Positions 1 through 15,878 are shown, counted from the stretch's first letter. The stretch is DNA of 56,630 nucleotides from Minisyncoccota bacterium (GCA_028716825.1 JAQUPA010000002.1:1-56630); one strand, 5' to 3'. Numbers and translations are program-made. Notes: generated from the letters alone by a model not told the origin.

Positions 1-92
1 ATTTTAAAGATGGAAAATTATCTGCAAACACAAAAAAAGGACATGCAAATAAAAAAACAAATATAAATATTATATATGTTTTTTTTATCATA

Positions 93-689
93 TTAAAATT
101 CATTTCTAATCTTATCTTTAATAACTTTTTCGCACTCTGCGTTATATTTTTTATAATTCTGACCAACTGAAGTACAGGAAAATATATAAACTTTTTTATT
201 TTTAGCAAAAGAAATATCAATAACTCTGCTTTTCTCAAGATAGATAGGTTTATCATTTTCGTCTGCGGCATAACTCATTTTATCAACAGTCTTTATTGTT
301 TCTTTGCCGTTTATTTCAGAAAACTTCAATTCTTTCTTCGAATAATCCCAATTTTGTGTTGCGAACTCTTTTATGTTAAGCCGTTGAGGATTAAGCTGGA
401 TATAAACTTCCATTACTACACCATCTTGTAATTCTGTATCTATAATCTGGTTTGGACCAAATTTTTGTATTTCTAAAACTTCATCTGAAACATATTTTTT
501 AACCTTCCATCCCTCTGGAACCTTCATTGAAATACCTTCTTTTCTGTTTATTACTAATTTTCCTTCAGGTGTATCTTTTATAACAATCATATTCTCTGGC
601 TGATTCTGCCACCACCAATAATATCCAATACCAGCAACGATAACTAATAATCCAACTATTATTAATATAATTACTAATTTCTTTTTCAT
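93..689 (-). CDS. hypothetical membrane-anchored protein
   Basis: ORF track; ATG at 689-687; single N-terminal hydrophobic helix (LVIILIIVGLLVIVAGIGYYWWW); no family recognised. Confidence 0.45.
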   Translation of the reverse strand: MKKKLVIILIIVGLLVIVAGIGYYWWWQNQPENMIVIKDTPEGKLVINRKEGISMKVPEGWKVKKYVSDEVLEIQKFGPNQIIDTELQDGVVMEVYIQLNPQRLNIKEFATQNWDYSKKELKFSEINGKETIKTVDKMSYAADENDKPIYLEKSRVIDISFAKNKKVYIFSCTSVGQNYKKYNAECEKVIKDKIRNEF

Positions 690-773
690 AATTTTATATT
701 TTTAATTTTTATTAATCCAATAATAAATTTTTCTATTTTAACATTATTAAATTTTATTTTCAAATTACACTAC

Positions 774-804
774 AAAAAAATCGGCTCGTTGGAGCCGATT
801 TTTT
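774..804 (-). terminator. intrinsic terminator after the receiver-domain gene (symmetrical, could act in both directions)
   Basis: 8-bp stem ATCGGCTC/GAGCCGAT (780-787/792-799), loop GTTG, flanked by an A7 run and a T6 run. Confidence 0.7.
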
Positions 805-820
805 GTGGTATTCTTTTTTA

Positions 821-1204
821 TTATTTTAGTTCTTCTCCGAGTTCTTTTCTTATAAGATTAACCAAGTCTTTTGTTGTAGTGCTGGCTTTTAAAACGTATC
901 TTGTATTATACTCTTGAGCAATTTTTCTCACTTCTGGCGTGTCGTAGTTTGAATAAAGAATAACTGGAATATCTTTTGTTTGTGGATCTGCTTTAAGTTT
1001 CCTTAGAGCGTCTGTTCCGTCCATATTAGCGTCTGGTAAAATAATATCAAGTAATATTAAGTCTGGCTTCTCCTCTTTTGCAATGGCAACGCCACTCTCT
1101 GCGTCTATAGAACGAGAAACTTCATAACCTTCTACTTTAAGCCGTTCGCCATACATTTCAGCAAGTACTTTCTCATCCTCTATCATTAATATTTTCTTTG
1201 CCAT
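821..1204 (-). CDS. single-domain response regulator (CheY-like receiver)
   Basis: MIEDE acidic pocket, phospho-acceptor context LILLDIILPD, conserved Lys (VLKAS); no output domain. Confidence 0.85.
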   Translation of the reverse strand: MAKKILMIEDEKVLAEMYGERLKVEGYEVSRSIDAESGVAIAKEEKPDLILLDIILPDANMDGTDALRKLKADPQTKDIPVILYSNYDTPEVRKIAQEYNTRYVLKASTTTKDLVNLIRKELGEELK

Positions 1205-1206
1205 AT

Positions 1207-1240
1207 AATTACTACGAATTTACTAATAATTACGAATATA
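1207..1240. repeat. inverted copy of the 18-mer found upstream of the GxxExxY gene
   Basis: TACGAATTTAC (1213-1223) + 7 nt + TACGAATATA (1231-1240). This equals the reverse complement of TATATTCGTAAATTCGTA, interrupted by a short insertion. Confidence 0.7.
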
Positions 1241-1263
1241 CTTATTATATTATAACAAAACCT

Positions 1264-1659
1264 TTATAAATTTAAAATACGTTTAAACTTTACGCCATTA
1301 TTTGTAAAATTGACCAAAAGCCCTAATTTTAATTTTCTCGCTTTTAAATATGCATAAACTTGTTCTATGTCTTTTCTTGAAAATCTATCCCCCTTTTTAA
1401 TTTCTAATATTATTTTATCTTCTATCAAAAAGTCAAGAAAATATCTGCCTATCTTTTCATCTAAATATTTTAAAGGCACCAAAACTTGCTCTTGAAAATT
1501 CAATTTTTCTTTTTTAAAAACTGCTGCAATAGCTCTCTGGTAATATTTTTCTTGGTAGCCAACGCCTAAATTGTTATATACTTCAAACATTATTCCAATA
1601 ATTCTATAGCTCAATTCTGGATAAATCAAATCTGTTTTTATTATCTTTGTCTTGTCCAT
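1264..1659 (-). CDS. GxxExxY family protein (family typically found inside 23S rRNA intervening sequences)
   Basis: motif GVGYQEKYY (GxGxxExxY); 131 aa; N-terminal LIYPELSYRIIG typical of the family as I remember it. Confidence 0.7.
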   Translation of the reverse strand: MDKTKIIKTDLIYPELSYRIIGIMFEVYNNLGVGYQEKYYQRAIAAVFKKEKLNFQEQVLVPLKYLDEKIGRYFLDFLIEDKIILEIKKGDRFSRKDIEQVYAYLKARKLKLGLLVNFTNNGVKFKRILNL

Positions 1660-1695
1660 TATATTCGTAAATTCGTATATATTCGTAAATTCGTA
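1660..1695. repeat. perfect 18-bp tandem duplication abutting the GxxExxY start codon
   Basis: TATATTCGTAAATTCGTA at 1660-1677 and again at 1678-1695; the ATG of 1264..1659 is at 1659-1657. Confidence 0.9.
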
Positions 1696-1702
1696 GGAAC
1701 TA

Positions 1703-3328
1703 TCAAAAATCTTTTAAAAATTTCTGCATTTTAGCTCCATTTATCGGCAATTCTACATAAAAGAGACTTCCCTTGCCTCTCCCTTCGCTCTTTGCCCAAA
1801 TTTTTCCTTTGTGCGCCTCAACTAATTTTTTGGCAACATAAAGCCCAACGCCAGAACCCTCAGGAAATAATCTTACGCCAGTTCCTCTCCTGTAAATTTT
1901 AAAAAGCTGACTCATATCTTTTTTGGAAATTCCCATACCAGTATCTGAAACAGTAATTAATATTCTTTTTTGTGTTCCGTTTTTTTCTTCAACTTTTACC
2001 TCAACATTACCATGGTCAGTATATTTAATTGCATTGTCAATTAAATTTAAAACAACTAATCTTATTTTTTGAGGGTCAATTGTAATTTTAGATAAATCCT
2101 TCTCGGGTTCTTTGTATATAAGTTTAAGTTTTTTCTTTGATGCCCTTACATAAAGTTCATCTACTATACTTTGGATAAGATCTTCAAGTTGGGTTTCTTT
2201 AAATTCAAACTCCATTCTTCCCATCTCAAGACGAGATATGTCCAAAAGCGAATTTACCAATCTTATAAGTCTTTCACTTGAATCATTAACTTTATCAAGC
2301 GTTACTCTTACTTTATCTGAAATATCTCCATAAATTCCCTCTTGTACCATTGCAACATATCCTTTAATCGCGGTTAAAGGAGTTCTTAGCTGGTGAGATG
2401 CAATTGACAAGAACTCGGTTTTTGCCTCGTCTAATCTTTTAAGTTCTTTATTGGCTGCTTCAAGTTGTTCTTTTAATTCTATCTCCCGCAAAACACTTCT
2501 TATTAATAGATATCCAAAGAAACAATAAAAAAGGAAAAGTCCGCTATTTAAAATTCTCATAGCCATACTTGGAGCAACAATAGCTTGGAATAATAAAATT
2601 AGTCCAATTAAGCCTACGAATAGTTCTGTCAAAACTACCCTAATTCCAAAAAGTTTTTTAGATATAATTGCAAAAGCCGTAAAACCAACAAAGAAAAGAG
2701 TAAAATATGGTCCAAACTGAGATGGTTCAAATGCTCCGAAAAATAAAGGAATTAAAAAATTTGTAAATGTAGCCAGAGTGCCTGCGACAATCAAGCCTAT
2801 TGCTAAATATTTTAACTGAAGTCTTTCTATTCCTTTTAAACGAATATATTTCCTTACTAATATTGCAAAAGCCATTATAATATAAGCGAGAAAATAAAGT
2901 GCAAATACAATAACAAAATTTCCGAAAACTAAATCTACTCCAACATTTTTTTTCATTGCTATATCTTTCACAATTAAGTCAGTAAATGTTAAAACAACAA
3001 CAAATAGAGCGGGTAATATTATCAATAATTTCTTTTTTAACGACATTTTTTTCTCTTGTCGAGGAAATATCATCGTAAAAATTAAGAGACCCAAAGCAAA
3101 AAGACCTGTAGTCGTAAAGGTTAATTTTGTTGCTATTAAAGTATGAGGATAGTTTTTTACGTGGTCCGCGGCAAAATTACTTATAATCCATGCAACAATA
3201 AAAAGAACCGTGAGAGCAAAAACCTGATTAACTCTCTTCTTTTTGTTTGTCCAAAAAACAATGAATGCTAAAACAAAGTTTATAATCAAAACTATAAAAA
3301 AAGTAGCCCAAATTAATATCTCAATCAT
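1703..3328 (-). CDS. sensor histidine kinase with a polytopic N-terminal membrane domain
   Basis: H-box SIASHQLRTPLT, N-box DNAIKYT, G-boxes DTGMGI and GSGVGLYV; about 270 aa of repeated hydrophobic helices at the N-terminus. Confidence 0.9.
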   Translation of the reverse strand: MIEILIWATFFIVLIINFVLAFIVFWTNKKKRVNQVFALTVLFIVAWIISNFAADHVKNYPHTLIATKLTFTTTGLFALGLLIFTMIFPRQEKKMSLKKKLLIILPALFVVVLTFTDLIVKDIAMKKNVGVDLVFGNFVIVFALYFLAYIIMAFAILVRKYIRLKGIERLQLKYLAIGLIVAGTLATFTNFLIPLFFGAFEPSQFGPYFTLFFVGFTAFAIISKKLFGIRVVLTELFVGLIGLILLFQAIVAPSMAMRILNSGLFLFYCFFGYLLIRSVLREIELKEQLEAANKELKRLDEAKTEFLSIASHQLRTPLTAIKGYVAMVQEGIYGDISDKVRVTLDKVNDSSERLIRLVNSLLDISRLEMGRMEFEFKETQLEDLIQSIVDELYVRASKKKLKLIYKEPEKDLSKITIDPQKIRLVVLNLIDNAIKYTDHGNVEVKVEEKNGTQKRILITVSDTGMGISKKDMSQLFKIYRRGTGVRLFPEGSGVGLYVAKKLVEAHKGKIWAKSEGRGKGSLFYVELPINGAKMQKFLKDF

Positions 3329-3361
3329 AAATAAATAGAATAATTATATTATTATATTCAA

Positions 3362-3404
3362 AACAAAAGCAAAATGCCAGGCTGCAATATAAGCCCGCCT
3401 GGCA
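3362..3404 (-). terminator. intrinsic terminator after the LuxI-like gene
   Basis: minus strand reads TGCCAGGC-14 nt-GCCTGGCA followed by TTTTGCTTTTGTTT. Confidence 0.7.
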
Positions 3405-3406
3405 TC

Positions 3407-4093
3407 TTACAAGGAACTGTTTAGGACTGCGTTTGCTTCCTCCACCACTTCTTCTTCAATGACATCGCCGTTGAGATACTCGTAAAGTGGGGGATTTTCC
3501 AGGAAAGCTGCATTGGCCTTATCGCGTGGAAGAACCACTGGAGCAGTCAAGCTGCCCATATAGTACTTCGGTTCCCCTATCTCCTCAAATGGGAAACCAA
3601 GAAAGCGAATAAGACCAAGAACAACAACATCAAGGCTTGCAAACCAATGAGTGATGTTCTTTTCGTACCAAGTCTCTCGGTAAAGCGCTCTGATCAAGGC
3701 AAGAGATATTGAATGCCTCGCGTACATAGAACGCTCTTCCATGTTCAACGCCTTAAAGACGTCGGAACATATCAATCGAGAGATTTCGCAAGATTTTTCC
3801 GCTTTAGGCGGAAAATAGCATTCCGGAAAATCCCTATAGATTGGCAGAGGCAAGTCTTTTGTTGGATAGATCGCCCTCACCATTCCTATAATTCCACTTT
3901 TCACCGGCAATCCATCTCTATAGGCGATGAAGGTCGAAGATCTTTCGGGAGAATCATATTCGTCCTGTTCTGAACGAAATGAGTAATTGTTGGCTAACCA
4001 CCCTAGCTTCCCCACATAGATCTCGTATCGAAGTCGATATGACGCATTTAGCTCCTTTCTCGTCTCTGCTTTTTTTACCACTAAGACAGACAT
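3407..4093 (-). CDS. LuxI-like / N-acyl amino acid synthase-like acyltransferase (GNAT-related fold)
   Basis: YRLRYEIYVGKLGW near the N-terminus, acidic EQDEYD and EISRL resemble the autoinducer-synthase / N-acyl amino acid synthase family. ATG preceded by GGGAGGTGA. About 47-53% GC in sampled lines. Confidence 0.45.
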   Translation of the reverse strand: MSVLVVKKAETRKELNASYRLRYEIYVGKLGWLANNYSFRSEQDEYDSPERSSTFIAYRDGLPVKSGIIGMVRAIYPTKDLPLPIYRDFPECYFPPKAEKSCEISRLICSDVFKALNMEERSMYARHSISLALIRALYRETWYEKNITHWFASLDVVVLGLIRFLGFPFEEIGEPKYYMGSLTAPVVLPRDKANAAFLENPPLYEYLNGDVIEEEVVEEANAVLNSSL

Positions 4094-4194
4094 TTAGTTT
4101 CACCTCCCTTCTGCAGTCCTCTTATTGTAACGTGCTTGTGTATCTTTATTAAAAATGACTGCAATACATTATAATATTACAATCAGATATTTAA

Positions 4195-4223
4195 ATTCTA
4201 TCATATTTTATTAATAATGTCAA
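4195..4223 (-). promoter_or_regulatory. sigma70-like promoter for the LuxI-like gene
   Basis: minus strand TTGACA (4223-4218), 17-nt spacer, TAGAAT (4200-4195); about 100-nt leader. Confidence 0.6.
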
Positions 4224-4226
4224 TTT

Positions 4227-4258
4227 AAAAAAGCGGGGTAGCACTTTCGCACTACCCC
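4227..4258 (-). terminator. intrinsic terminator overlapping the ThiF-like stop codon
   Basis: minus strand GGGGTAG..CTACCCC stem followed by GCTTTTTT. Confidence 0.7.
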
Positions 4259-5019
4259 ATGGGATCGAATTGAACAACGAACGGGAGCTCATGACCCTTT
4301 ACGGTCTTGATTACGACAGAAACCGTAAGGATTGAAGCTATCCAAGCCGCTATCACTGGCTGAGGATAATGCTCAATTTCCCCTTCAATCACCTGTCCGA
4401 GAACAGGCAGAAAGTAGGGATTAAGCTCTACCCTCTTTGCCATGTTGAACATCAACTCCCAAACAGAGATTTTCTCGAGTTCCTGTGGGATAATCCCCTG
4501 AGGGATACCCAAAAGGTTTTCGAATGTCTCTCCGTTCGGAGTCAGGCAGAAAAGAACTGATCCCCACCCGACATCAATCGGGTAAAGAAAGATCTTTTTC
4601 TGCCGACGGCAAGCCCTTGCAAGCTCCAAAGAGGCGGAGATTCCCGGATCCGGGTCGATACCATCGATTACTATGTCGCACTTAGCAACAAAATCAGTGG
4701 CGTTGTCCGGTTTGATAAAATCCGCCCAGGCCTCTACCCTCACATCAGGATTAATCCTGGAAAGGACGTCTATCAGGACAATTGCTTTTTCCTTCCCAAC
4801 GTCCTCCAGAAAGAAAGCCTGGTGATTTAGGTTCGCTACCTCGACTGTATCAGGGTCAGCCCAAACGAAGTTTTCCACCCCAAGTCGGCACAAAGCCTCT
4901 GCTACGAACGATCCCATTCCGCAGCCAGCAATACCGACAGTGAGTTCTCGCAAGCTCCTCTGTTCCTCCTCTGAAAGGAGGCCAGCATTGCGAGAAATGA
5001 GTTCCTTATAACGGAACAT
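4252..5019 (-). CDS. ThiF/MoeB/HesA-family E1-like adenylyltransferase (adenylation domain only)
   Basis: Rossmann GIAGCGMGSFVAEAL followed by ADPDTVEVANLNHQ (the usual NLxRQ Arg is His). 255 aa with no peptide-clamp, rhodanese or CxxC extension. ATG with GAAAGGAGG. Confidence 0.7.
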   Translation of the reverse strand: MFRYKELISRNAGLLSEEEQRSLRELTVGIAGCGMGSFVAEALCRLGVENFVWADPDTVEVANLNHQAFFLEDVGKEKAIVLIDVLSRINPDVRVEAWADFIKPDNATDFVAKCDIVIDGIDPDPGISASLELARACRRQKKIFLYPIDVGWGSVLFCLTPNGETFENLLGIPQGIIPQELEKISVWELMFNMAKRVELNPYFLPVLGQVIEGEIEHYPQPVIAAWIASILTVSVVIKTVKGHELPFVVQFDPMG

Positions 5020-5054
5020 TCTAATCGACCTCCTTTCTTCGTATATCGATTAGA
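5020..5054 (-). promoter_or_regulatory. hairpin enclosing the ThiF-like ribosome-binding site
   Basis: mRNA reads TCTAATCGA-TATACGAAGAAAGGAGG-TCGATTAGA-ATG. The 9-bp perfect stem is 5054-5046/5028-5020. The SD sits at the 3' edge of the loop and the stem arm fills the SD-ATG spacer. Confidence 0.5.
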
Positions 5055-5076
5055 TTTTTTAGGTTCTGTATTTTAT

Positions 5077-5105
5077 ATTATACACCGCTTAATTGAAAAA
5101 GTCAA
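5077..5105 (-). promoter_or_regulatory. sigma70-like promoter for the ThiF-like gene
   Basis: minus strand TTGACT (5105-5100), 17-nt spacer, TATAAT (5082-5077). Confidence 0.65.
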
Positions 5106-5133
5106 ACAAAAACGCAGGTTCCCCTGCGTTTTA
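5104..5133 (-). terminator. intrinsic terminator inside repeat copy A
   Basis: minus strand AAAACGCAGG-GGAA-CCTGCGT-TTTTGTTTG; 7-bp perfect stem. Confidence 0.75.
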
Positions 5134-5157
5134 GATTATTTTTTAAAAAGATTAATT

Positions 5158-5203
5158 AATCCCAAGTTCCTCTGCTACTTTTGGATTAAGTTCTGTTGTA
5201 ATT
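5158..5203 (-). pseudogene. orphan duplicate of the last 15 codons of the NUDIX gene
   Basis: 45/46 nt identical to 7933-7978, which encode ITTELNPKVAEELGI of 7930..8364; no upstream continuation of that reading frame. Confidence 0.8.
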
Positions 5204-5976
5204 TAAATTTTTATTTCCTTAAACAATTTTTTATGAACTTTAATCACTCGATATGACTCTTTTAAAAAATCTTCAAAATTATCATTCTTAGTAATTTTAT
5301 TATATAGGTCGGTAAAATACTTTGGAACGGTTTTACCGCCTATTTTTATTTTTCTGTATTCCGTATAAAAAACTGCTTTTTTCTTTAATAATTTCTGGAT
5401 GCGACTATCATTTAAAACTATGGGCGCAATAATTTCACTTAAATGCCATTCAATATAGGGAAATTCAAATTTTTCAGAATTCATTTTTGGATGCATATTT
5501 TTCCATTTTTCAAAATACAAAAAATGACAACATTCATGCATAATAATCTCCATCGCATCTTTGATATTTTTGTAATTAAAATATATAAAAAAACTCCAGT
5601 CGTTTAAAAAACGCGGGCAAATAGGATTAATAGATATCATTGCTTTAATTATGTCTCTGTTTAAGGGCCAAGTGATTTGTAAAATTTCTGAAAGTAAAAT
5701 AAAAAAATCTTTTTCAGTTTTTCGCCAATTTTTTTCATATCTAACCTTATTTTTATTTATTATTTTTTGATTCTCTTCTCTGGTTTCAAAAATATATCCT
5801 TTTAAAAATTTGACTTTTTCCTTCTCGTTTTTAAAAGAAAAAACTTCTTTGATCTTAGGATGCTTTTTAATTATATACTTATCCCACCCCCAATTATCTT
5901 GAATTAAAAAACTGTGCATCCAATCAACTTCTTTAAGTAATGTAATGTTTATAAATTTTACTTTTGGAGTAAACAT
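5203..5976 (-). CDS. hypothetical protein with an HExxH motif (possible zinc metallopeptidase)
   Basis: IIMHECCHFLYFEKW contains HExxH; about 18% GC in a sampled line. ATG at 5976-5974 immediately follows the T-tract of the rSAM terminator. No family recognised. Confidence 0.35.
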   Translation of the reverse strand: MFTPKVKFINITLLKEVDWMHSFLIQDNWGWDKYIIKKHPKIKEVFSFKNEKEKVKFLKGYIFETREENQKIINKNKVRYEKNWRKTEKDFFILLSEILQITWPLNRDIIKAMISINPICPRFLNDWSFFIYFNYKNIKDAMEIIMHECCHFLYFEKWKNMHPKMNSEKFEFPYIEWHLSEIIAPIVLNDSRIQKLLKKKAVFYTEYRKIKIGGKTVPKYFTDLYNKITKNDNFEDFLKESYRVIKVHKKLFKEIKI

Positions 5977-6025
5977 ATAAAAACCCTAATTCTGTCAAGA
6001 TTATACCATAAATAGAATTAGGGTT
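5977..6025 (-). terminator. intrinsic terminator after the radical SAM/SPASM gene
   Basis: 12-bp perfect stem AACCCTAATTCT/AGAATTAGGGTT (6025-6014/5993-5982), 20-nt loop, then TTTTAT running into the next ATG. Confidence 0.65.
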
Positions 6026-6034
6026 AAAAGGAAT

Positions 6035-7438
6035 TTAATTTTCTGTCGAAGGAAAGGATGTTTTGGGATCCATTTTTTCTATTAGATCCCGAATCAGAAA
6101 TTCGGCCGTCGCTTTAGCATGAACACAGAAAATATCGTCTACCTCCCAAATACTACCTTTACTTTTGTAGGCACTGTAGGGACAACCTCCTCCGCAGATA
6201 CTTAAAGCAATACAGTTATAGCACTGTTCCATAAAAAGTGGGGAACGGAATTTCCATTCTTCCCAAATAGGATGATTGAAGGGATCAAAGGTAATATCTG
6301 GGTGAATAAAATATTTTCTACTTCCGCAATATCCCTGACAGACTCCAACCATACCATCTGGAGCTATAACTATTTGCTCGCCACAACCGCCACAATCATT
6401 GTAATAAATGTAGCCTTCAACAAAAGCATTTACTTTTCGCATTATTCTGTCTTCATAAATCCCCTTTTCTCTAAAGAAACGGTAACACTTAATAATCTGT
6501 TTAGCAACCTTTTCGGCATATACTTTAGCATCTCCACGAATACCTTCTATGCCAATACTTTCTATCAAAATGTTAAAGCTTATCGAGGTTGCACCCAATT
6601 CATTTACAAACCACTTAGAAATCTCTTCCAATTGTTCTACATTGTATTGACTGATTGTACAACAAATCCCCGTATTAACTCCGTTTTTAACAAGAAGCTG
6701 ATAGCCCCTTATGGTATCATCAAAAGATCCATGGCCATCACGACGTCTACGACACTTATCATGAATTTCCTTGGGACCATCCAACGAAACTGCCACATTA
6801 ACATTTCCAAAGCTTCTAAGCGTTAAAGCAATTGTTTCGTTAATTAATGCACCATTTGTATTTATTGTGATAAAGGTAGTGGAAGGAAGGGTTTTTTTAC
6901 TTTTTAGGCTTTCAATATACCTGAGCATTCTTTCAACTACCTCGAAGTTTAGAAATGGTTCGCCTCCATAGAATATTATCTGAGGAGTCTCTACGGTACT
7001 GTTTTTACCTATTAATTTTGCGAATAAATCAATACCGAACTGGGCAGTTTTTGTCGACATCTTAGAAAATTGGTAGTTTTCTGGTATTGCACCCTCAATG
7101 AAGCAATAAATGCAGGCAAGATTGCAAACATCTGTCATGAGCAGATAAAGTATACCAATTTCCTTGTTTCTAAATTTCGTTTGAATCTTTGCGTATTCTT
7201 CAAGGTCAAGACGTCGATCTAATGGAAAAACAAGCTTGTGTCTTGTTAGTTCGCTAACAAGATTATCGTCTAAAGAGTTAATTTGATCATAAGAGATAAT
7301 CTTGTGTTTAGCCTGCCTAAAAAGCTTTGCCGTTTCTTTATCAACAATAACTACATCTAAAGTAAGTGCATTGTATAAAGCCGTCAGGTTATTGATTCCT
7401 TCTACAAAATGACAAAAATCAGAAATTCTTAAATTCAT
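6035..7438 (-). CDS. radical SAM / SPASM-domain peptide-modifying enzyme
   Basis: CNLACIYC (C105, C109, C112 = CxxxCxxC); C-terminal CGGCGEQ and CYNCIALSICGGGC (Cx2Cx5Cx3C) SPASM pattern. The approximately 95-aa N-terminal extension is the size of a RiPP recognition element. ATG preceded by AGGAGG. Confidence 0.9.
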   Translation of the reverse strand: MNLRISDFCHFVEGINNLTALYNALTLDVVIVDKETAKLFRQAKHKIISYDQINSLDDNLVSELTRHKLVFPLDRRLDLEEYAKIQTKFRNKEIGILYLLMTDVCNLACIYCFIEGAIPENYQFSKMSTKTAQFGIDLFAKLIGKNSTVETPQIIFYGGEPFLNFEVVERMLRYIESLKSKKTLPSTTFITINTNGALINETIALTLRSFGNVNVAVSLDGPKEIHDKCRRRRDGHGSFDDTIRGYQLLVKNGVNTGICCTISQYNVEQLEEISKWFVNELGATSISFNILIESIGIEGIRGDAKVYAEKVAKQIIKCYRFFREKGIYEDRIMRKVNAFVEGYIYYNDCGGCGEQIVIAPDGMVGVCQGYCGSRKYFIHPDITFDPFNHPIWEEWKFRSPLFMEQCYNCIALSICGGGCPYSAYKSKGSIWEVDDIFCVHAKATAEFLIRDLIEKMDPKTSFPSTEN

Positions 7439-7525
7439 TATTCAACCTCCTGTAATCGTTCTTGACACTCTATATTATAAAAATGGGGCAAGAAGAATTC
7501 TCTCTTACCCCTGTGGCACAGATCA

Positions 7526-7702
7526 TCAACTACTCCTCGTTCTGGTCTTTGTCCCAGGAGAATTCTCGCAGTAACACGTTCCTCCGCAGATTCCCCCGCA
7601 ACGCATCTGCATTCCATCCTTTACTTTGCCCCTGATAAGGGCAAACTGTTTCTCCGTCGGCACTAGAACCACAACGTTCTTCGGTTCCTTCTTGTTTTCC
7701 AC
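7526..7702 (-). CDS. candidate Cys-rich RiPP precursor peptide (58 aa, not in the ORF track)
   Basis: GTG at 7702-7700 with AGGAGG 10 nt upstream, TGA at 7528-7526. Translation: MENKKEPKNVVVLVPTEKQFALIRGKVKDGMQMRCGGICGGTCYCENSPGTKTRTRSS. Ends 87 nt upstream of the rSAM/SPASM gene. Confidence 0.55.
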   Translation of the reverse strand: MENKKEPKNVVVLVPTEKQFALIRGKVKDGMQMRCGGICGGTCYCENSPGTKTRTRSS

Positions 7703-7798
7703 GTTCTCTCACCCTCCTTTCGCCTTCTTTATGTTCCTTCGCTTCCTTTTCTCTTATTAAAATTTCAAGGTTCAAAAAACTACTCAAAAACTACTAAT

Positions 7799-7826
7799 AT
7801 TTTATAATAATCACCCAAATTGTCAA
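7799..7826 (-). promoter_or_regulatory. sigma70-like promoter for the precursor-rSAM unit
   Basis: minus strand TTGACA (7826-7821), 16-nt spacer, TAAAAT (7804-7799), followed by a purine-rich leader. Confidence 0.55.
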
Positions 7827-7878
7827 ATATTTGGACAAAACAAGTATCATTTCATCAATTCATTTTTTATTAAAAGTC

Positions 7879-7906
7879 AAACCAAAAGCACGGGATTCCC
7901 CCGCGC
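7879..7906 (-). terminator. intrinsic terminator of the NUDIX gene (inside repeat copy B)
   Basis: minus strand GCGCGGG-GGAAT-CCCGTGC-TTTTGGTTTG. One pair is G-U on the minus-strand RNA and would be an A-C mismatch on the plus strand. Confidence 0.7.
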
Positions 7907-7929
7907 TAAGCTATTTTAAAGGTAAAGTG

Positions 7930-8364
7930 TTAAATCCCAAGTTCCTCTGCTACTTTTGGATTAAGCTCTGTTGTAATTAAACTCTTTATGGCTTCTGGTT
8001 TAACCCATTTAATTTCCGCTACTTCATGCGCTTCTTTTGGATTTGCAATGGGTTTTTCATTGTTTAGGGTACAAAGGTGATAAATAATTATAACTGAAAT
8101 CTGGGGATGAAAAGAAAGGTCTATTTGCTTTGTTGAAGTAACATCATATCCAGTCTCTGCTAAGACTTCCCTTCTTACGGCTTCCTCTCTTTCTTCGTTT
8201 GAAAATTGTTTTCCGCCGGGGAAAGCCCATTCTAAAATTGCGCCATCTTTACCTTTCTCCGGCTTTTTTCTTCTTATCATTAAAACCTCTCCTTTTTTAT
8301 TTAAAACTACACCTAAATTTATAAGCTTATTTGATTCTATAACTTTATTAGATTTTTTAGGCAT
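7930..8364 (-). CDS. NUDIX hydrolase
   Basis: Nudix box GGKQFSNEEREEAVRREVLAETGY (Gx5Ex7REUxEExGU). Confidence 0.85.
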   Translation of the reverse strand: MPKKSNKVIESNKLINLGVVLNKKGEVLMIRRKKPEKGKDGAILEWAFPGGKQFSNEEREEAVRREVLAETGYDVTSTKQIDLSFHPQISVIIIYHLCTLNNEKPIANPKEAHEVAEIKWVKPEAIKSLITTELNPKVAEELGI

Positions 8365-8434
8365 GTTGTTATCTTAATTTACTTTTAATTTACATTATAA
8401 AGATCTATTGTCAATAAAATTTAAACAATGAGTA

Positions 8435-8463
8435 TTGACAAATTCTTATTTTTTTTGTAAAAA
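8435..8463 (+). promoter_or_regulatory. plus-strand sigma70-like promoter
   Basis: TTGACA (8435-8440), 17-nt spacer, TAAAAA (8458-8463); the only convincing plus-strand promoter I found in the window. Confidence 0.5.
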
Positions 8464-8464
8464 A

Positions 8465-8945
8465 TATGATTGTGGAAAAACCATAACGTTCAGCTCTTTG
8501 AAAGGAAGATAAAAGACCACCGCTCGCTTAACGAAAAAGAAATCTGTAAGGAACGCTACAGCAATTCTGATTTCTGCAACAATTGTGACAGAATCTATCC
8601 CAATAAAAGGAATATAGAAAGTGTTCAAGATTAAGAAAGGAGTGATGCGCAACGAAAGTAGATCCAGATCCAGAAAAAACCTGCAAAGAGAACCAACCCG
8701 GTAAGTGGAAAGAATGTGGTAAACTTTGGGTCTCAAACGGAAACCAAAAACAAGCCATACAAAAGCTTACAGAGAACTGTCCAACAAGCTGCCCCTGGCA
8801 CTTCAATAACTCACCTTACGCAGTAAACAGAACAATAACAGCAATGGTGGTTAATTCTCACCGGGGTTCCTTTGACTGGTCTGAATGACAATCTTCCGGG
8901 GTAACAAATAGGGCCTAGTGTAATACGCTAGGCCTTTCGTCTTTT
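8465..8945 (+). ncRNA. structured non-coding RNA of unassigned class (weak rnpB-like blocks)
   Basis: About 480 nt with no credible ORF and higher GC than its flanks. It has a promoter upstream and a terminator at 8910-8945 (stem GGCCTAG/CTAGGCC extended by G-U pairs valid only on the plus strand, then TTTCGTCTTTT). Hairpins at 8470-8486 and 8538-8575. Confidence 0.45.
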
Positions 8946-8958
8946 AACTTATAAACTG

Positions 8959-10989
8959 CTATTGCCTTACTTTCCACTGAGGGTTTTTTTCGAGATTCTT
9001 TATAATATTTTTTTGAACTTTATCAACTTCTTTTGAAGAAAGGGTCTTTTTTTCTGACTGATAAATTATATGAAAAGACAGGCTTTTGTTTTTTTCTTTT
9101 TGATTGATATCCTCTTGATAAATGTCAAAAACTTCAACGTTTCTTATAATTTCTCCTCCTGTAGAATAAATTTTCTGGATAATTTCTCCTGCCAGAACAT
9201 TCTCAGGAACAACAACGGAAATGTCTCTTATCGTTTCTGGATAGACTGAAGGTTTTTTATACTCATGCTCCCCTTCAATTAAGTCTAGAAGTGTTTTAAA
9301 GTTAATTTCAAAAGCAAAAACGGGTATTTTTATATTATAAAAACCAAGAATTTTTTTTGATACTTCTCCCAAAAATCCTATCTTTTTATTTCCAGTCTCG
9401 ATTTCAGCTGATTTACCTTTCTCCCAGAAAATATTTTTTTCTTTTGTGTGACCGTAGAAAACATCAACCATCCCAAGTTCTTCAAAAAAACTTTCAAGAA
9501 GCCCTTTAAGCTCGTAAAATTCGGTTTTGCCTGCGATAATACCAGCAAAAAATCTTTTTTCTTTTTCTTTAAAAATATTTCCAATTTCAAAAAATCTAAC
9601 ATCTTTAAATCTCTTCTGGTTTAAAGTCACTGCTTTTAAGAGATTACAAATTAAAGAAAACCTTAGATATTTAGTATTTGAACTAATAGGGTTACCAAGT
9701 TCTGTTAGTTTTAATTTTTTGTTTAATTTTTTGAAAAAATCTCCTTCGTTATCTGAAATAAAAGAATAATTATAGGTCTCTGTAAAACCAAGCCCTTTCA
9801 TTAGTGTTCTTATTTTTTTAACCCATAAAAGATCTAAATTCTTTGGTGGCAATGCCTTTTGTAAAATTGAAAAAGTGGATGGTATGTTCTCGTATCCAAA
9901 AATCCTTCCAACTTCTTCAATTAAATCTTCTGGAATGCAAATATCTCGCCTAAAAGTAGGAATTTTTAAAATTAAGACAGCTTCTGATTCTCGCTGAATT
10001 TCAAATCCTAAATCCTTAAATATCTTTACTACTTTATCTTTTGAAATTTTAATTCCCAAGAGACTTCTTAGATAATTAAGATCAATTTTTATAATATTTG
10101 GGAAAGTCTTTTTTGGATAAAAATCCAAGACGCCAGATTTAATATCTCCCCCTGCAATTTCTTTTATAAGGCCTGCGACTTTATCTATCGCTTCTCTAGC
10201 TAAATTAGGGTCAATATTTGCGGAAAAACGCATTGAAGCATCTGTTTGTAATTTAAGTTTCTTTGACGTTCTATAAATACTAACACCGTTAAAATTCGCA
10301 GACTCTAAAATTATTCTCTTTGTATTTTTTTTAATTTCTGCTTTTTTCCCGCCCTTAATGCCTGCGATTGCAATTGGATATTTTGCATCAGCAATCACCA
10401 AATTATCTTTATCAAGGGTATATTTCTTGTCTTCTAAGGTGGTAATTTTTTCGCCTCTTTTTGCCTTTCTTACAATAATTTCTTTTTTTTCTTTTTTACC
10501 AAAAAGCTTTTCATAATCAAAAGCATGAAGAGGCTGGCCCGTTTCTAACATAATATAATTTGCAGCATCTACTATATTATTTATCGACTGAACACCACAG
10601 CTTTCTATCTTTTGTTTTAACCATTTTGGGGATGGAGCAACTTTAACATTATCAATTATCCTTGCGCAGTATCTCTGGCAAAGATCTTTACTTTTTATTT
10701 CAATCTTTAAAATATCAGCTGTTTTAATTTTCTTTTCTTCGCTAAATTTATATTCTGGTGCTTTAAATTTATATCCTAAGATTGCAGAAATTTCTCTTGC
10801 AATTCCAATATGAGAAGAACAATCCGGCATTCTGTCTGGTAAAACATCGATATCTAAAATCCAATCATCGCTTTTTTTAATTAAATCTTCTACTTCTAAT
10901 GTATGCATCATTAAAAGATCTGCCAATTTCTCTGGATTGGGTAATTTTTTTTGAAAAAATAATTGTAACCAGTTATATGAAAATTTCAT
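8959..10989 (-). CDS. pheT: phenylalanine--tRNA ligase beta subunit
   Basis: MKFSYNWL N-terminus, B3/4 and B5 region, position immediately after pheS. Confidence 0.9.
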   Translation of the reverse strand: MKFSYNWLQLFFQKKLPNPEKLADLLMMHTLEVEDLIKKSDDWILDIDVLPDRMPDCSSHIGIAREISAILGYKFKAPEYKFSEEKKIKTADILKIEIKSKDLCQRYCARIIDNVKVAPSPKWLKQKIESCGVQSINNIVDAANYIMLETGQPLHAFDYEKLFGKKEKKEIIVRKAKRGEKITTLEDKKYTLDKDNLVIADAKYPIAIAGIKGGKKAEIKKNTKRIILESANFNGVSIYRTSKKLKLQTDASMRFSANIDPNLAREAIDKVAGLIKEIAGGDIKSGVLDFYPKKTFPNIIKIDLNYLRSLLGIKISKDKVVKIFKDLGFEIQRESEAVLILKIPTFRRDICIPEDLIEEVGRIFGYENIPSTFSILQKALPPKNLDLLWVKKIRTLMKGLGFTETYNYSFISDNEGDFFKKLNKKLKLTELGNPISSNTKYLRFSLICNLLKAVTLNQKRFKDVRFFEIGNIFKEKEKRFFAGIIAGKTEFYELKGLLESFFEELGMVDVFYGHTKEKNIFWEKGKSAEIETGNKKIGFLGEVSKKILGFYNIKIPVFAFEINFKTLLDLIEGEHEYKKPSVYPETIRDISVVVPENVLAGEIIQKIYSTGGEIIRNVEVFDIYQEDINQKEKNKSLSFHIIYQSEKKTLSSKEVDKVQKNIIKNLEKNPQWKVRQ

Positions 10990-12389: not shown

Positions 12390-13439
12390 CTCATTGTTTA
12401 TAACTTTTATAAATAATTCCTCTTCCCAATTTTTTCTAAATATTATATTTTTACTAGGTATTATTTTATCTAAAAAAAGAATGTAATTTGAATGTTTAAT
12501 TGCTCTTTTCGATTTTGGAAACAAAGCAATTTTTATTGGTTTTCCTCCTCTTTTTTTTACTTTTCGTTCAAGATAGTCAAGTGTATTACTTGAATAAGAC
12601 CTATCGATGATTGAGATTTTTTTATTTCTTAAATCTTTTCTGAATAATTCCATTTCTTTTGTCATATCTAAACTTAAATGACACTCCCACAACATTATCT
12701 TCTTTTTTATTCCTATCTCCTCTATAAAACCAAGGGCATATTTCAATCCTGCCTTTGGTATAAAAATATAAATGTCGCTTTTCGGTAATGTCTTAAAAAA
12801 ACCAAAAATAGCAAACCTAGGAAAGTTAATTTTCCCAAAAATAGAATATTCTTTTTTGAGACGGGAATAAAAATCTTTTGTCTTAAAACAGCACCTTTTA
12901 ATTTCTTTATTTTTTATTTTAATTTCTCGTTCTTTTATTATAGCCTTTATTTTTTTTAATTCTTTTTTCCAATGATTTGTTTTTTTAATTTTATAATAAA
13001 TAAATTTGGGAATTTGATTTATTCTATTATCAGAACCAGCGATTCTAATTTCTAAGTTAGAATGTGGTCCTTCTAAATAAACAATTTCGAGATTCTTAAA
13101 TCTAGATGAAATGTCTTTTTTAAACGAATAATGAACTTTTTCAGAAGTGAAAAGTTTATGCAGAGTAAATATCTCTGCCAAATTTAAAGTTGGATTTATA
13201 TAATTTTCACTGAGATCACAAAGCACTACCTCTGGTGCACGTAAAATATACCTATATTTTCCGGGATAAAAAGACCATCCCTTGCTCAGTTTATCTGCAA
13301 GTTTATCTCTATCTGTAGTAATGTCTATAAAATTACTTTTAAAATGGGGCTTATTGTAAACAAGAATACCATTTTTTAATTCCTGAACTGGCTTAAGTGT
13401 ATTATAAGTTTCGTCTAATAAACCTTCTTTATCTATCAT
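12375..13439 (-). CDS. hypothetical protein, weak phosphoribosyltransferase-like C-terminus
   Basis: KKISIIDRSYSSNTLDYL loosely resembles a type I PRTase PRPP loop. ATGA start/stop overlap with 13436..14698. The last four codons lie in the 42-bp repeat. Confidence 0.35.
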   Translation of the reverse strand: MIDKEGLLDETYNTLKPVQELKNGILVYNKPHFKSNFIDITTDRDKLADKLSKGWSFYPGKYRYILRAPEVVLCDLSENYINPTLNLAEIFTLHKLFTSEKVHYSFKKDISSRFKNLEIVYLEGPHSNLEIRIAGSDNRINQIPKFIYYKIKKTNHWKKELKKIKAIIKEREIKIKNKEIKRCCFKTKDFYSRLKKEYSIFGKINFPRFAIFGFFKTLPKSDIYIFIPKAGLKYALGFIEEIGIKKKIMLWECHLSLDMTKEMELFRKDLRNKKISIIDRSYSSNTLDYLERKVKKRGGKPIKIALFPKSKRAIKHSNYILFLDKIIPSKNIIFRKNWEEELFIKVINNETKFL

Positions 13440-14698
13440 AAAAATTTATAAAATTCATTTGCTATGCTCGATCTTGAACTTAAGGTACAACAAAAAGGCT
13501 TAAATTTATAATTTTTATAGATGCTTACTAATTTTTCTGTGAAATCTAAAATTTTCTGAGGGGGCAATGGATTACGATTACCCCAAACTGAACCTGGTCT
13601 AGGAAAAAAAACAGTATAATCGGAAACAACACCCTTCTTTGCAAGGGTTTCTATCCCAGCTATTAAACCACTCAATGGTTCTGTGCCTAATACGAAATTC
13701 GTTCTTGTTCTTCCTTTCCCAAAAATATCGGCACTATATATCAAAGACTCTAACATTCTATCATAGCCATAAATTTTTTCTTTTCCCGGACAAACTTTTT
13801 TGAAAATTTTTTTATTGAAACATTCTAAATTAAAACAAATGTATTTAAACCCATAATCAAATACCTTTTCAATATATTCAAAATTAAGAGGGGGCATTAA
13901 ATTAAAATAACTATCAACCTTAGAAAATTCTATTTTATCTTTTATAGAATCAACTATATCAAAAATCATTTTCCATTCAAAATCTAAATCCGAAATGTTT
14001 CCAGAAATTATCGAAAAGTGAAAATGAGGTCCAATTTTATCCCTTAATAAAAGATCGACGCACTGAGAAATTCTCTTTAGCGTTTTATCTCTATAGTAAT
14101 ACCACCAATTTTTATAATCTCCGTTAAATTTATTTTTAATCTCAAAAACGTTTGGTTTAAACCCCTCAAAACCTAATCTTTTGGGATTTGCCCCACAAAA
14201 CTTACACTGTTCTCCAGATATCCAGTTTTCACAACCATCATAAGGTATTATAGAAATTCTATCTACGCCTACTACACTTACAAATTCATCTACGGGTATA
14301 CCATTAATCTTCTTTTTATTATATGGATATAGAGGAACTGCCTTAACAGAAACGGGCATTCTTTTGTCTGTTTTTTTGTCTAATATTAAGAATTTTTTAT
14401 TTTTGACGAGACAAATAAAAGGAGATTCTTTCCTAAAATACACCTTTACTATTGATTTTTGATTACCATCCTCTAAGATCAATTCATCCGGAATAAAATT
14501 TCTTTTATCTGTTTTGACAGATATAAAATGCCTATCAGAAACTTTAATTTTATTGGCTTTATATTTTAAGGAAAATTCAGGAAATCCTTCTTGAATCGAA
14601 GAAAAATCAAAATCAAGACCAAAAGTCAATAAGAGAAGTTTAGTGTTTAGAACAAAAGAGGAAGTAGGGTTTTTTAGATAATGTTCAAAAATTTTCAT
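13436..14698 (-). CDS. radical-SAM-like protein with a non-canonical Cx8Cx2C cluster motif
   Basis: DGCENWISGEQCKFCG. Later NLECFNKKIFKKVCPGK and TNFVLGTEP resemble LipA/BioB-type barrel strands. About 150-aa N-terminal extension. Confidence 0.45.
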   Translation of the reverse strand: MKIFEHYLKNPTSSFVLNTKLLLLTFGLDFDFSSIQEGFPEFSLKYKANKIKVSDRHFISVKTDKRNFIPDELILEDGNQKSIVKVYFRKESPFICLVKNKKFLILDKKTDKRMPVSVKAVPLYPYNKKKINGIPVDEFVSVVGVDRISIIPYDGCENWISGEQCKFCGANPKRLGFEGFKPNVFEIKNKFNGDYKNWWYYYRDKTLKRISQCVDLLLRDKIGPHFHFSIISGNISDLDFEWKMIFDIVDSIKDKIEFSKVDSYFNLMPPLNFEYIEKVFDYGFKYICFNLECFNKKIFKKVCPGKEKIYGYDRMLESLIYSADIFGKGRTRTNFVLGTEPLSGLIAGIETLAKKGVVSDYTVFFPRPGSVWGNRNPLPPQKILDFTEKLVSIYKNYKFKPFCCTLSSRSSIANEFYKFL

Positions 14699-14704
14699 TT
14701 TAGT

Positions 14705-15250: not shown

Positions 15251-15314
15251 ATAGTTTTTATTTTAAAAATATCAAAAATGAATTTAAAAGTCAATTTTTT
15301 ATTTTCTATAAAAT

Positions 15315-15346
15315 AGCCTCCAAGCCTTACTTAAGGCTTGGAGGCT
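15315..15346 (-). terminator. 15-bp perfect hairpin overlapping the GreA-like stop codon
   Basis: AGCCTCCAAGCCTTA / TAAGGCTTGGAGGCT, followed on the minus strand by ATTTTAT and then a TTGACT -35-like element upstream of the CYTH gene. Confidence 0.65.
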
Positions 15347-15872: not shown

Positions 15873-15878
15873 CCTTCC

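Follow-up and report, generated by a model that had tools for sequence, protein, structure and literature searches.

A cassette of three biosynthetic genes has been inserted behind a NUDIX hydrolase gene in the genome of a Minisyncoccota bacterium, between two direct copies of the 3′ end of that gene. A small circular DNA with a homologous arm seems to have integrated by one crossover in the core of this repeat, probably through RecA. The locus is one more case of a known class of integrase-free gene insertion, and it has some bearing on the mechanism.

Geometry of the direct repeat

Sequence reading, repeat finding and self-BLAST of the window (the whole stretch analysed, 56.6 kb, equal to contig C2) identified positions 5097–5214 as a direct repeat of 7872–7989 at an offset of exactly 2775 bp. 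This match (79% over 124 columns, E 9e-19) is the top self-match of the window. The core and the GTTTGACTTTT element share the offset, and both copies are co-linear without a net indel. The features of the locus are listed by position in the window, with the strand given for genes and signals.

3407–4093, minus strand: FeeM/LuxI-like acyltransferase (domain search; syntenic with the related contig L057)
4252–5019, minus strand: ThiF/E1-like adenylyltransferase, right-hand flank of the insertion site (PF00899, E 1.5e-30; directly after NUDIX in L057)
5077–5105, minus strand: ThiF promoter (promoter scan; equivalent TTGACT..TATAAT before ThiF of L057); the repeat end falls between −35 and −10
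5097–5214: repeat copy A, a dead NUDIX 3′ fragment in which a stop context of native type is followed by terminator T_A and by the ThiF −35 box; strains differ here through substitutions and a 1-nt indel
5109–5132, minus strand: T_A, formerly the NUDIX terminator, now ending the HExxH transcript (terminator scan; −15.3 kcal/mol, z −3.6)
5158–5203: core of copy A, 45/46 identical to 7933–7978
5203–5976, minus strand: HExxH protein, 257 aa, uncharacterised family, stop at the edge of copy A (240 homologues, often directly after an rSAM gene)
6035–7438, minus strand: radical SAM/SPASM peptide maturase, 467 aa (PF04055, E 2e-18)
7485–7511, minus strand: hairpin with T-run in the precursor/maturase gap, an attenuator-type terminator (terminator scan)
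7526–7702, minus strand: Cys-rich RiPP precursor, 58 aa (..GMQMRCGGICGGTCYC..), GTG start behind AGGAGG (homologous precursors in relatives)
7799–7826, minus strand: promoter-like site TTGACA-16-TAAAAT before the precursor gene (consensus match only, 11/12)
7872–7989: repeat copy B, the last ~19 NUDIX codons with TAA stop, then terminator T_B and the vestige of a −35 box; no difference among the window, L162 and L160, which are independent assemblies
7887–7907, minus strand: T_B, terminator of NUDIX (terminator scan; −15.7 kcal/mol, z −2.0)
7930–8364, minus strand: NUDIX hydrolase, 144 aa, the target gene, 3′ end in copy B (PF00293, E 5e-18)
7933–7978: core of copy B, 45/46 identical to 5158–5203

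The preliminary description had placed a direct repeat with such a core around the HExxH/rSAM/precursor block, and both the repeat and the constant offset of its core were borne out. Copy B is, as had been proposed, the true end of the NUDIX gene and includes the final 15 codons of its ORF with the TAA; the duplicated part of the gene end, present twice, comprises its last ~50–120 bases. Copy A was rightly taken for a dead fragment: it is decaying and differs strain by strain, and the HExxH ORF indeed stops at its edge (5203–5205, at the border of core A and in the NUDIX frame). The diverged terminators each still fold, and both were found by the terminator scan. The AAAAGTCAAAC element reported at the repeat end is real and could be refined to the −35 box of the ThiF promoter (TTGACT-17-TATAAT, 5105–5077). 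Copy B also holds a TTGACT −35 box of a ThiF-type promoter, without a matching −10, and thus the arm is derived from a NUDIX-terminator-promoter locus. T_B appears to have come in together with the cassette.

A search of the whole genome (647,599 bp) returned only these two copies of the repeat. According to this, the repeat is no dispersed element, an objection that had been raised from the start.

Repeats bracket other blocks as well. A second block in the window is bracketed by an unrelated 42-bp repeat, several more were seen in the source genome and in related loci, and the bracketing repeats of other loci are of quite different lengths and sequences.

Genes of the cassette

The repeat encloses a promoter, a conserved Cys-rich precursor, an attenuator hairpin, an rSAM/SPASM maturase and the HExxH protein; precursor, rSAM and HExxH are the only genes of the ~2.66-kb insert. 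Precursor homologues with the same GMQMRCG junction precede the orthologous rSAM gene in L059, L155, L156, L158, L060 and L160. With its radical SAM domain (PF04055) and a conserved Cys-rich precursor directly upstream, as at these six other loci, the insert is a generic rSAM/SPASM RiPP cassette. The top NCBIfam match of the maturase is TIGR04136 (FibroRumin maturase) with 268.7 bits against a cut-off of 400; the maturase is related to this equivalog and is not a member of it.

No match to the HExxH protein was found in Pfam, NCBIfam or the PDB, and its AF2 model (pLDDT 72) gave no fold match in Foldseek. A tblastn search suggested NUDIX homology back to HExxH residue 109. This extension is not real and was rejected, since the tail ..FLKESYRVIK..KKLFK is conserved in the HExxH family and the ..KKLFK C-terminus is thus native to it. 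At most the last 3–4 codons of HExxH could derive from NUDIX, and these too may be native, given family members with ..EIKK or ..EILK at the end. A search for rSAM and HExxH relatives in viral contigs found none, and an Rfam search of positions 8350–8990 gave no match at E up to 1.

The same cassette type (precursor-rSAM-HExxH; rSAM 54–70% identical) occurs elsewhere in unrelated contexts, and thus the cassette moves as a unit. Beside the cassette homologues of L058, L059 and L155–L159 no NUDIX-like arm was found; NUDIX genes near some cassette homologues belong to other subfamilies. Orthologues of the target NUDIX gene itself are present in relatives and metagenomes (58–97% identity).

Empty site and related assemblies

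A check of relatives for an empty site had been called for in the preliminary description, and one is present in the metagenome contig L057. There the order is NUDIX (72% aa identity), 138 nt, ThiF (57%), FeeM (64%), HK (63%) and RR (71%), with a single NUDIX end, no cassette and no internal direct repeat. In the window 132 nt separate the stop of copy A from the ThiF start. Judged by this gene order, L057 is the empty site. With only 72% protein identity in NUDIX it is not of the same species, and loss of the cassette in the lineage of this fairly distant relative is formally possible. Among 300 genomes of the order four ThiF orthologues were matched; none of the four adjoins NUDIX, and all four are linked to HK-RR.

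In a relative without the cassette (L051/L052, NUDIX 97.6% nt identity) the functional NUDIX gene has an A-type end (GIT*), and the next 26 nt match copy A of L049 without a difference. The B-type end was found solely alongside the cassette. The junction NUDIX-T_B-precursor recurs in the independent assemblies L160, L162 and L163, and the junction of HExxH, copy A and downstream sequence in L161, L049, L050 and L173. Since both junctions are present in independent assemblies of close relatives, the structure is no assembly artefact. L173 (SRR22315504) had also been considered as a near-identical empty site and was dropped, because its contig begins within the core and is uninformative on that point.

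A likeness of two terminator-promoter modules by chance or convergence, with no insertion at all, has virtually no probability left. The mild enrichment of TTGACTTTT in the window (8 copies vs 3 expected) would be in its favour, but a coding sequence is matched at 45/46 in a non-coding place, and the self-BLAST match together with the empty site of L057 already refutes it.

Mosaic identity of the two copies

Copies A and B differ at 1 of 46 positions in the core, against about 40–58% difference between T_A and T_B in the adjoining terminator segment (20 of 51 positions with gaps, 26 of 45 without); the Fisher p of this contrast is about 4e-6. The core of copy A departs from B at 1, 3 and 4 sites in three strains, with no site common to them. 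As all core differences from B are strain-specific, the core was identical in the common ancestor of these strains, when T_A and T_B were already far apart. From these sequence comparisons the repeat is a recombination joint between two alleles of the NUDIX end and not a target that was copied and then drifted, because no core change is shared, the terminator parts differ so strongly and the A-type end is functional in a cassette-free relative. A crossover inside the core fits the mosaic identity, and the differences between the copies suggest that the incoming DNA brought its own version of the target.

In a plain target duplication, the copies would have been identical once, the terminators would have diverged afterwards, and the core would have been retained, or made uniform again through gene conversion templated by the functional copy. 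The layout agrees with the published criteria of such a class (PMC2853133), as does the co-linearity of the copies, and terminator hairpins evolve fast here (T_A differs by ~16% between the window and L049). We nevertheless regard this explanation as decidedly improbable. The core of copy A drifts freely and differently in each strain and is thus neither selected nor converted, a neutral core without a shared change beside a segment of such divergence is incompatible with one common age, and the A-type end is the working NUDIX end in L051. Gene conversion (concerted evolution) of the cores, which was considered because copy A of L049 matches the NUDIX end of L051, was rejected since copies A and B differ at three core positions within one strain (L160/L161).

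Replacement by a linear fragment through homology-facilitated illegitimate recombination, possibly in two steps, is an unlikely but credible alternative to circle capture. A donor fragment with a NUDIX allele (whole or partial) of B-type end, T_B and the cassette would have replaced the 5′ part of the resident NUDIX gene by one homologous crossover in or upstream of NUDIX and one illegitimate join of the HExxH stop to resident NUDIX codon ~128 at a TTTAA microhomology, and copy A would be the leftover of the resident gene. Indeed, NUDIX and cassette travel together: the unit of both, 99.7% identical, follows CYTH in L162/L163 and PheT in the window and L160, the breakpoint falls at NUDIX codon ~5, and identity to the SRR28640815 strain rises from ~90% to 97–99% exactly at NUDIX. 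Furthermore, the HExxH stop overlaps the first bases of NUDIX-derived sequence, and the genome encodes a ComEC-type channel. However, the donor and resident alleles would have to match across the 46-nt core, including synonymous sites, and yet differ by ~40–58% right downstream, which requires an earlier joint at the NUDIX stop codon and thus an extra event.

Proposed capture of a small circle by a single crossover

No recombinase or transposase gene is present in the insert or in the window, which agrees with the preliminary description. Whole-genome family searches gave a single tyrosine recombinase, on contig C3, and two large serine recombinases, one each on C4 and C14; no Y1 transposase was found in the genome. 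By site-specific integration, the cassette would be, or derive from, a small non-autonomous element with the NUDIX 3′ end in its attP, joined to attB within the core by one of these recombinases. We consider this improbable. In its favour, attL/attR sites classically show diverged arms around an identical core, the insertion lies at the 3′ end of a gene that is restored, and a weak imperfect dyad (AATCCAAAAGT..ACTTGGGATT) was noted in the core by eye alone. Against this, no recombinase lies within or beside the insert, the single tyrosine recombinase is most simply the Xer enzyme of the chromosome, and long identical cores are not shared by serine integrase att sites. Cassette homologues elsewhere lack a NUDIX-like arm, and the unrelated repeats of the second block and of other loci argue against a sequence-specific enzyme. 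The locus had been proposed to be the scar either of site-specific integration or of single-crossover capture of a circle. The insertion scar stands, with its empty site, unique repeat and fit to a crossover in the core; no evidence points to a dedicated integrase, and homologous capture of the Campbell type fits better.

For capture of a circle the ancestral order would have been NUDIX, terminator, promoter, ThiF, FeeM, HK and RR, with the ~2.66-kb block and its own promoter being added between NUDIX and ThiF. Entry would have required one reciprocal crossover within the ~46–49 bp identical in the chromosomal NUDIX 3′ end and an incoming NUDIX-3′-like arm. A circle of ~2.8 kb is the most fitting picture of the incoming DNA: the cassette plus one arm of ~120 bp, on which a NUDIX end would have been followed by a diverged terminator of its own and a −35 box. 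It might have looped out of a related genome with this layout, or a fragment from outside might have been taken up and closed by end-joining; the scheme starts from a ready-made first molecule of cassette plus arm. Integration would be of the Campbell type and most likely RecA-dependent; RecA and a ComEC-type channel are both encoded elsewhere in the genome. In copy B the host NUDIX gene would then run into the stop context and T_B of the donor. In copy A the donor's HExxH junction would run into sequence native to the host, namely the stop context, T_A and the ThiF promoter. The NUDIX gene is intact, HExxH stops at the edge of copy A and uses the old NUDIX terminator, and copy A is decaying. 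The sequences show the insertion relative to an empty site, both joints, the mosaic identity and this decay, and we infer the circular intermediate, the dependence on RecA and the entry by DNA uptake.

Several points count against this scheme. A donor locus that combines a B-type NUDIX end with T_B and lacks copy A was not found, the 46–49 bp of identity are near the lower limit of efficient RecA recombination, and the cassette homologues elsewhere are without the arm. In addition, the tyrosine recombinase on C3 and the large serine recombinases on C4 and C14 could act in trans.

Implications

To our knowledge, no mechanism has been demonstrated for long target duplication since it was described for restriction-modification genes, and movement without a mobility enzyme is a standing question. 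The usual near-identical repeats do not allow a copied target to be told from an incoming homologous arm. Here the copies are different alleles joined at an identical core, and the dead copy decays independently in three strains. This joint, the independent decay and the A-type working end in a cassette-free relative favour recombination with a donor-borne arm.

As a tentative and rather doubtful generalisation, long target duplication in ultra-small, naturally transformable bacteria might be no duplication but a general integrase-free traffic of cassettes, in which RecA loops out circles, free DNA passes between related cells and re-entry occurs at ~40–50 bp shared with the arm. If so, the mosaic repeat would be the first sequence-level footprint that separates donor arm from recipient target, and the second bracketed block of the window as well as the repeat-bracketed blocks in the genome and related loci would be products of the same traffic. 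Patescibacteria have small genomes and are thought to depend on DNA uptake. In this ultra-small member of the group a peptide-natural-product cassette behaves as a portable unit, and the NUDIX-to-HK interval is marked as a strain-variable hotspot.

Comparison with known systems

As in rSAM/SPASM thioether RiPP systems (SCIFF/ranthipeptide, FibroRumin TIGR04136), a short Cys-rich precursor lies directly upstream of the maturase with an attenuator hairpin between them, and the top family matches are peptide maturases. Unlike there, all equivalog models score below their cut-offs, and the partner is an uncharacterised HExxH protein.

Integrative elements that target 3′ ends (of tRNA, tmRNA or protein genes, with a replacement 3′ end in attP) likewise leave a duplicated 3′ end, a gene restored by the element and the native end displaced to the far side, and an identical core with non-identical arms is common to attL/attR elements and this locus. 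These elements carry the integrase within or beside them, whereas neither the insert nor the window encodes one and the insert consists of only 2.66 kb with three biosynthetic genes.

In Campbell-type integration and homology-facilitated illegitimate recombination, one short homologous arm anchors foreign DNA, the arm is duplicated and hybrid copies flank the insert, as here. These routes are known from laboratory constructs and from transformation of Acinetobacter and Streptococcus, whereas here the route is deduced from sequence and the identity spans 46–49 bp. The illegitimate variant was reportedly described in naturally transformable bacteria by de Vries and Wackernagel in 2002.

The layout itself has already been named insertion with long target duplication (Nobusato et al. 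2000, Gene 259:99; Furuta, Abe & Kobayashi 2010, NAR 38:2428, PMC2853133). The criteria of the 2010 survey were repeats >30 bp, an insert <20 kb without integrase, transposase or phage genes, a repeat unique in the genome, an empty-site genome, repeats that are copies of the target, and restriction-modification (RM) cargo (PMC2853133). The present repeat measures 118 bp in all with its 46-bp core at 45/46, the ~2.66-kb insert is free of mobility genes, two copies exist in the ~648-kb genome, and L057, of a different species or genus, has a single copy and is homologous at both flanks. The cargo is a RiPP-type cassette, RM cargo being a criterion of the survey (criterion i) and no mechanistic requirement; a double-strand break made by the cargo is thus unavailable as a trigger. 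The two repeats are not both copies of the resident target, only the core being shared and the native-type end being of A type. Published repeats are nearly identical throughout (44/46, 417/423 and similar; PMC2853133), whereas those described here are mosaic, with 98% identity in the core and ~40–60% in the terminator part. As in the published cases, the repeat spans the stop codon so that the target gene stays intact, and the host has DNA-uptake genes. The locus has the layout of a long target duplication but does not look like a simple duplication.

Gene order and the repeated NUDIX end

Over its first 17 kb, the window has genes on the minus strand only. The genome of 648 kb (34 contigs, 33% GC) has protein matches naming Patescibacteria/Parcubacteria MAGs. 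The features around the NUDIX gene are listed from PheS onwards.

Features of the NUDIX locus
11960-10992, minus strand: PheS
10989-8959, minus strand: PheT, after PheS in the direction of transcription
8365-8958: ORF-poor stretch of ~590 bp between PheT and NUDIX
8364-7930, minus strand: NUDIX (PF00293)
7907-7887, minus strand: terminator of NUDIX (T_B)
7826-7799, minus strand: promoter-like site before the Cys-rich ORF
7702-7526, minus strand: 58-aa Cys-rich ORF (precursor) with a good Shine-Dalgarno sequence
7511-7485, minus strand: hairpin and T-run between the precursor and the radical SAM gene
7438-6035, minus strand: radical SAM (rSAM)/SPASM enzyme, top NCBIfam match FibroRumin peptide maturase
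5976-5203, minus strand: 257-aa HExxH protein, stop codon 5203-5205
5097-5214: copy A, a NUDIX fragment 3' of the HExxH gene
5132-5109, minus strand: terminator T_A
5105-5077, minus strand: TTGACT-17-TATAAT promoter (ThiF)
5019-4252, minus strand: ThiF
4093-3407, minus strand: FeeM/LuxI-like acyltransferase
minus strand, in this order downstream of the FeeM/LuxI-like gene: 7TM histidine kinase (HK), PD-(D/E)XK protein, response regulator (RR)

In a self-BLAST of the window, 5097-5214 (copy A) versus 7872-7989 (copy B) scored highest, with 79% identity over 124 columns (E 9e-19). The near-identical core reported in the preliminary description was confirmed at 45 of 46 positions, and copy B is indeed the true NUDIX end. 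Copy A lies outside any gene, save for the HExxH stop codon at its edge, and the terminators of both copies fold. The repeat is not a dispersed one, as the whole genome contains these two copies and no others. The GTTTGACTTTT element is present in both copies at the identical offset of 2775 bp; what had been described as a AAAAGTCAAAC element is repeated as stated, with its identity now corrected to the -35 box of the ThiF promoter. An extension of the homology further into the HExxH gene was rejected, because the tail ..KKLFK is native to the HExxH family.

An assembly artefact was likewise rejected, since both junctions recur in independent assemblies of other samples, namely the NUDIX-T_B-precursor junction in the related contigs L160, L162 and L163 and the HExxH-copy A-downstream junction in L161, L049, L050 and L173.

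The stretch 8365-8958 forms a unit on the plus strand that has a promoter-like site of its own, a terminator (8910-8936), a GC content of 0.40 and a strong AT skew, and for which Rfam gave no match at E up to 1. It is missing in close relatives, where the order is PheT-16 nt-NUDIX (L160) or CYTH-NUDIX (L162/L163). PheS and PheT, adjacent in the window, are ~450 bp apart in L160 (5588-6037).

Precursor, maturase and HExxH protein

The inserted cassette comprises the Cys-rich precursor, the rSAM/SPASM enzyme and the HExxH protein. The enzyme reaches 268.7 bits with the FibroRumin peptide maturase model of NCBIfam, below the cut-off of 400. Homologues of the precursor, which share the ..GMQMRCG.. 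junction and likewise have a Cys-rich core, are located 5' of orthologous rSAM genes at six other loci, and owing to this conservation the 58-aa ORF is considered a real precursor gene.

The HExxH family comprises at least 240 proteins of 250-257 aa (loci L104-L154 among them), mostly from Patescibacteria, with MAGs of Aenigmatarchaeota and Bacilli contributing a few. An rSAM/SPASM gene often immediately precedes the HExxH gene. No match to the family was obtained in Pfam, NCBIfam or PDB, and an AlphaFold model (pLDDT 72) gave no fold match. Judged from motif and gene context, the protein may act as a leader peptidase.

Empty site and probable gain of the cassette

The preliminary description read the repeats as an insertion scar and suggested a search for an empty site. 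Such a site was found in L057 (JGI 3300038466; NUDIX-ThiF-FeeM-HK-RR), which belongs to a species different from that of the window. Its NUDIX orthologue (72% aa identity) lies 138 nt before ThiF (57%), with FeeM (64%), HK (63%) and RR (71%) next in order; in the window, 132 nt separate the copy A stop codon from the start of ThiF. L057 has one NUDIX end only, and both the cassette and an internal direct repeat are absent from it, which supports the scar interpretation.

In the window and L057 alike, ThiF and FeeM have a GC content of 0.44-0.49 versus 0.33, which argues that the pair predates the separation of the two lineages and that the cassette would have arrived afterwards. At the NUDIX-ThiF locus the cassette occurs only in close relatives of the window, and elsewhere precursor-rSAM-HExxH cassettes of this type (rSAM 54-70% identical) occupy unrelated contexts. 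A gain in the lineage of the window appears to be the simpler reading.

Divergence of the two copies

In an alignment of the strains' copies, the window, L162 and L160 share an invariant copy B. Copy A departs from copy B by one substitution in the window, by CCA>GTG in L161 and by four substitutions close to the core's 3' end in the cassette-bearing relative L049; among strains, its left edge also varies by a 1-nt indel. This variation by strain indicates that copy A is neutral and that copy B is not converting it. None of the core positions differs from copy B in all three A copies (three strains), from which it follows that the common ancestor of these strains had identical cores. The terminator segment next to the core differs in all strains, at 20 of 51 columns of a gapped alignment or 26 of 45 positions of an ungapped one (core versus terminator segment, Fisher p about 4e-6). 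A single common age for core and flank is thereby excluded; a true duplication in place with later divergence of the copies is regarded as quite improbable.

The stop context is ..GI(N/T)-TAA-T.. in the A type versus ..GI-TAA-CAC.. in copy B. The cassette-free close relatives L051/L052 (NUDIX 97.6% identical at the nt level, downstream gene set different) have a functional NUDIX gene with the A-type end and 26 nt identical to copy A of L049, and thus the A type functions as a NUDIX end on a chromosome. A B-type end followed by T_B was found only together with the cassette. In copy B a ThiF-type promoter survives as its TTGACT box alone, the -10 box being absent. This points to a homologous NUDIX-terminator-promoter locus as the origin of the arm accompanying the cassette. 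No donor locus for the B-type arm was found.

A strain-variable interval and apparent exchange of larger segments

Between NUDIX and the kinase gene lies a strain-variable hotspot. It contains the cassette and ThiF-FeeM in the window, the cassette and a FeeM-like gene without ThiF in L049, and an unrelated 252-aa gene with PvlArgDC in L051/L052, where the sensor half of the kinase also differs. The kinase half of the histidine kinase is 90% identical at the nt level between L051 (3257-4826) and the window (1703-3328), with 63% aa identity overall; a mosaic breakpoint is therefore located inside the gene.

Identity between the window and the SRR28640815 strain (L160/L161) is ~90% across PheS/PheT and 97-99% from NUDIX codon ~5 to the window end (1-8349), a segment spanning NUDIX, cassette, ThiF, FeeM, HK, PDDEXK and RR. 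In L162/L163, CYTH precedes the same NUDIX gene and cassette (99.7%). A larger segment beginning at the NUDIX 5' end thus appears to have been exchanged between backgrounds. This swap of NUDIX together with the following genes is the main support for replacement by a linear fragment with one illegitimate join, an explanation we consider rather unlikely.

A ThiF-like E1 and a FeeM/LuxI-like acyltransferase are linked to a 7TM histidine kinase/response regulator in the window (821-5019) and in L057 (6565-10217), and ThiF-HK-RR linkage was also observed in another four genomes from the order (G122, G127, G137, G043). The set may represent a signalling module.

Other blocks between direct repeats

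A perfect 42-bp direct repeat (12348-12389/16612-16653), unrelated in sequence to the NUDIX repeat, brackets a second block (12390-16611) with the genes Tmk-GreA-CYTH-420aa-354aa. It consists of the last four codons (TKFL*), stop and terminator of the upstream 212-aa HD gene, and the last gene of the block (354-aa) ends inside it (..NNETKFL* in the window versus ..NNEIY* in L046). The close relative L160 shows HD-CYTH-103aa-PheS, without Tmk-GreA and the 420-aa and 354-aa genes.

Related Patescibacteria loci bearing the HExxH gene or the cassette have gene blocks flanked by direct repeats, 80-190 nt long and 86-93% identical. The window's own genome has further direct repeats of terminator/promoter modules (34-68 nt, 91-100% identical, 0.9-2.3 kb apart), which bracket one or two genes each.

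Direct repeats in related loci and in the window's own genome
L044: 1286-1454/4467-4652
L043: 2296-2392/5174-5271
L156: 2007-2307/8184-8418
L046: 1-78/4820-4901, promoter and 5'-UTR hairpin module
own genome, short repeats: C14 10793/11717; C13 5491/7762; C7 23671/25234

Mechanism of insertion

Repeat-bracketed blocks are also present in related loci and on other contigs of the genome, with repeats that vary in length and sequence, and this variety argues for a homology-driven process rather than a sequence-specific enzyme. The insert encodes no recombinase genes, and the earlier statement that integrase and transposase are absent from the window holds: the one tyrosine recombinase (contig C3) and the two large serine recombinases (C4, C14) of the genome are all encoded outside it, and no Y1 transposase was found in the genome. 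A site-specific recombinase acting in trans is improbable in view of repeats that vary in length and sequence among the bracketed blocks. RecA and a ComEC-type uptake channel are encoded in the genome.

We lean slightly towards a RecA-dependent capture of the Campbell type. Taken together, the comparisons of the copies describe a reciprocal joint within a 46-49-bp identical stretch between two homologous, diverged sequences, copy B combining host-left with donor-right and copy A donor-left with host-right sequence. Integration of a circle with a homologous arm by a single crossover would give such hybrid copies.

Comparison with insertions with long target duplication

Insertion with long target duplication was reportedly first described by Nobusato et al. 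in 2000. The class is defined by repeats >30 bp, an insert <20 kb and no mobility genes (Furuta, Abe & Kobayashi, PMC2853133), and furthermore by the absence of the repeat from the rest of the genome and by an empty site in another genome. The repeats often cover a stop or start codon, whereby the target survives, and most cases were found in naturally competent species (PMC2853133). In most of these respects the layout of the NUDIX locus is alike. The observed repeat structure is confirmed, and its reading as an insertion scar, another case of this known class, is supported. The mosaic repeats are informative for the mechanism. The locus departs from the described cases in two ways: its cargo is a RiPP-type cassette where theirs are restriction-modification genes, and its repeats are mosaic where theirs are near-identical and, because of this, are not both copies of the target.
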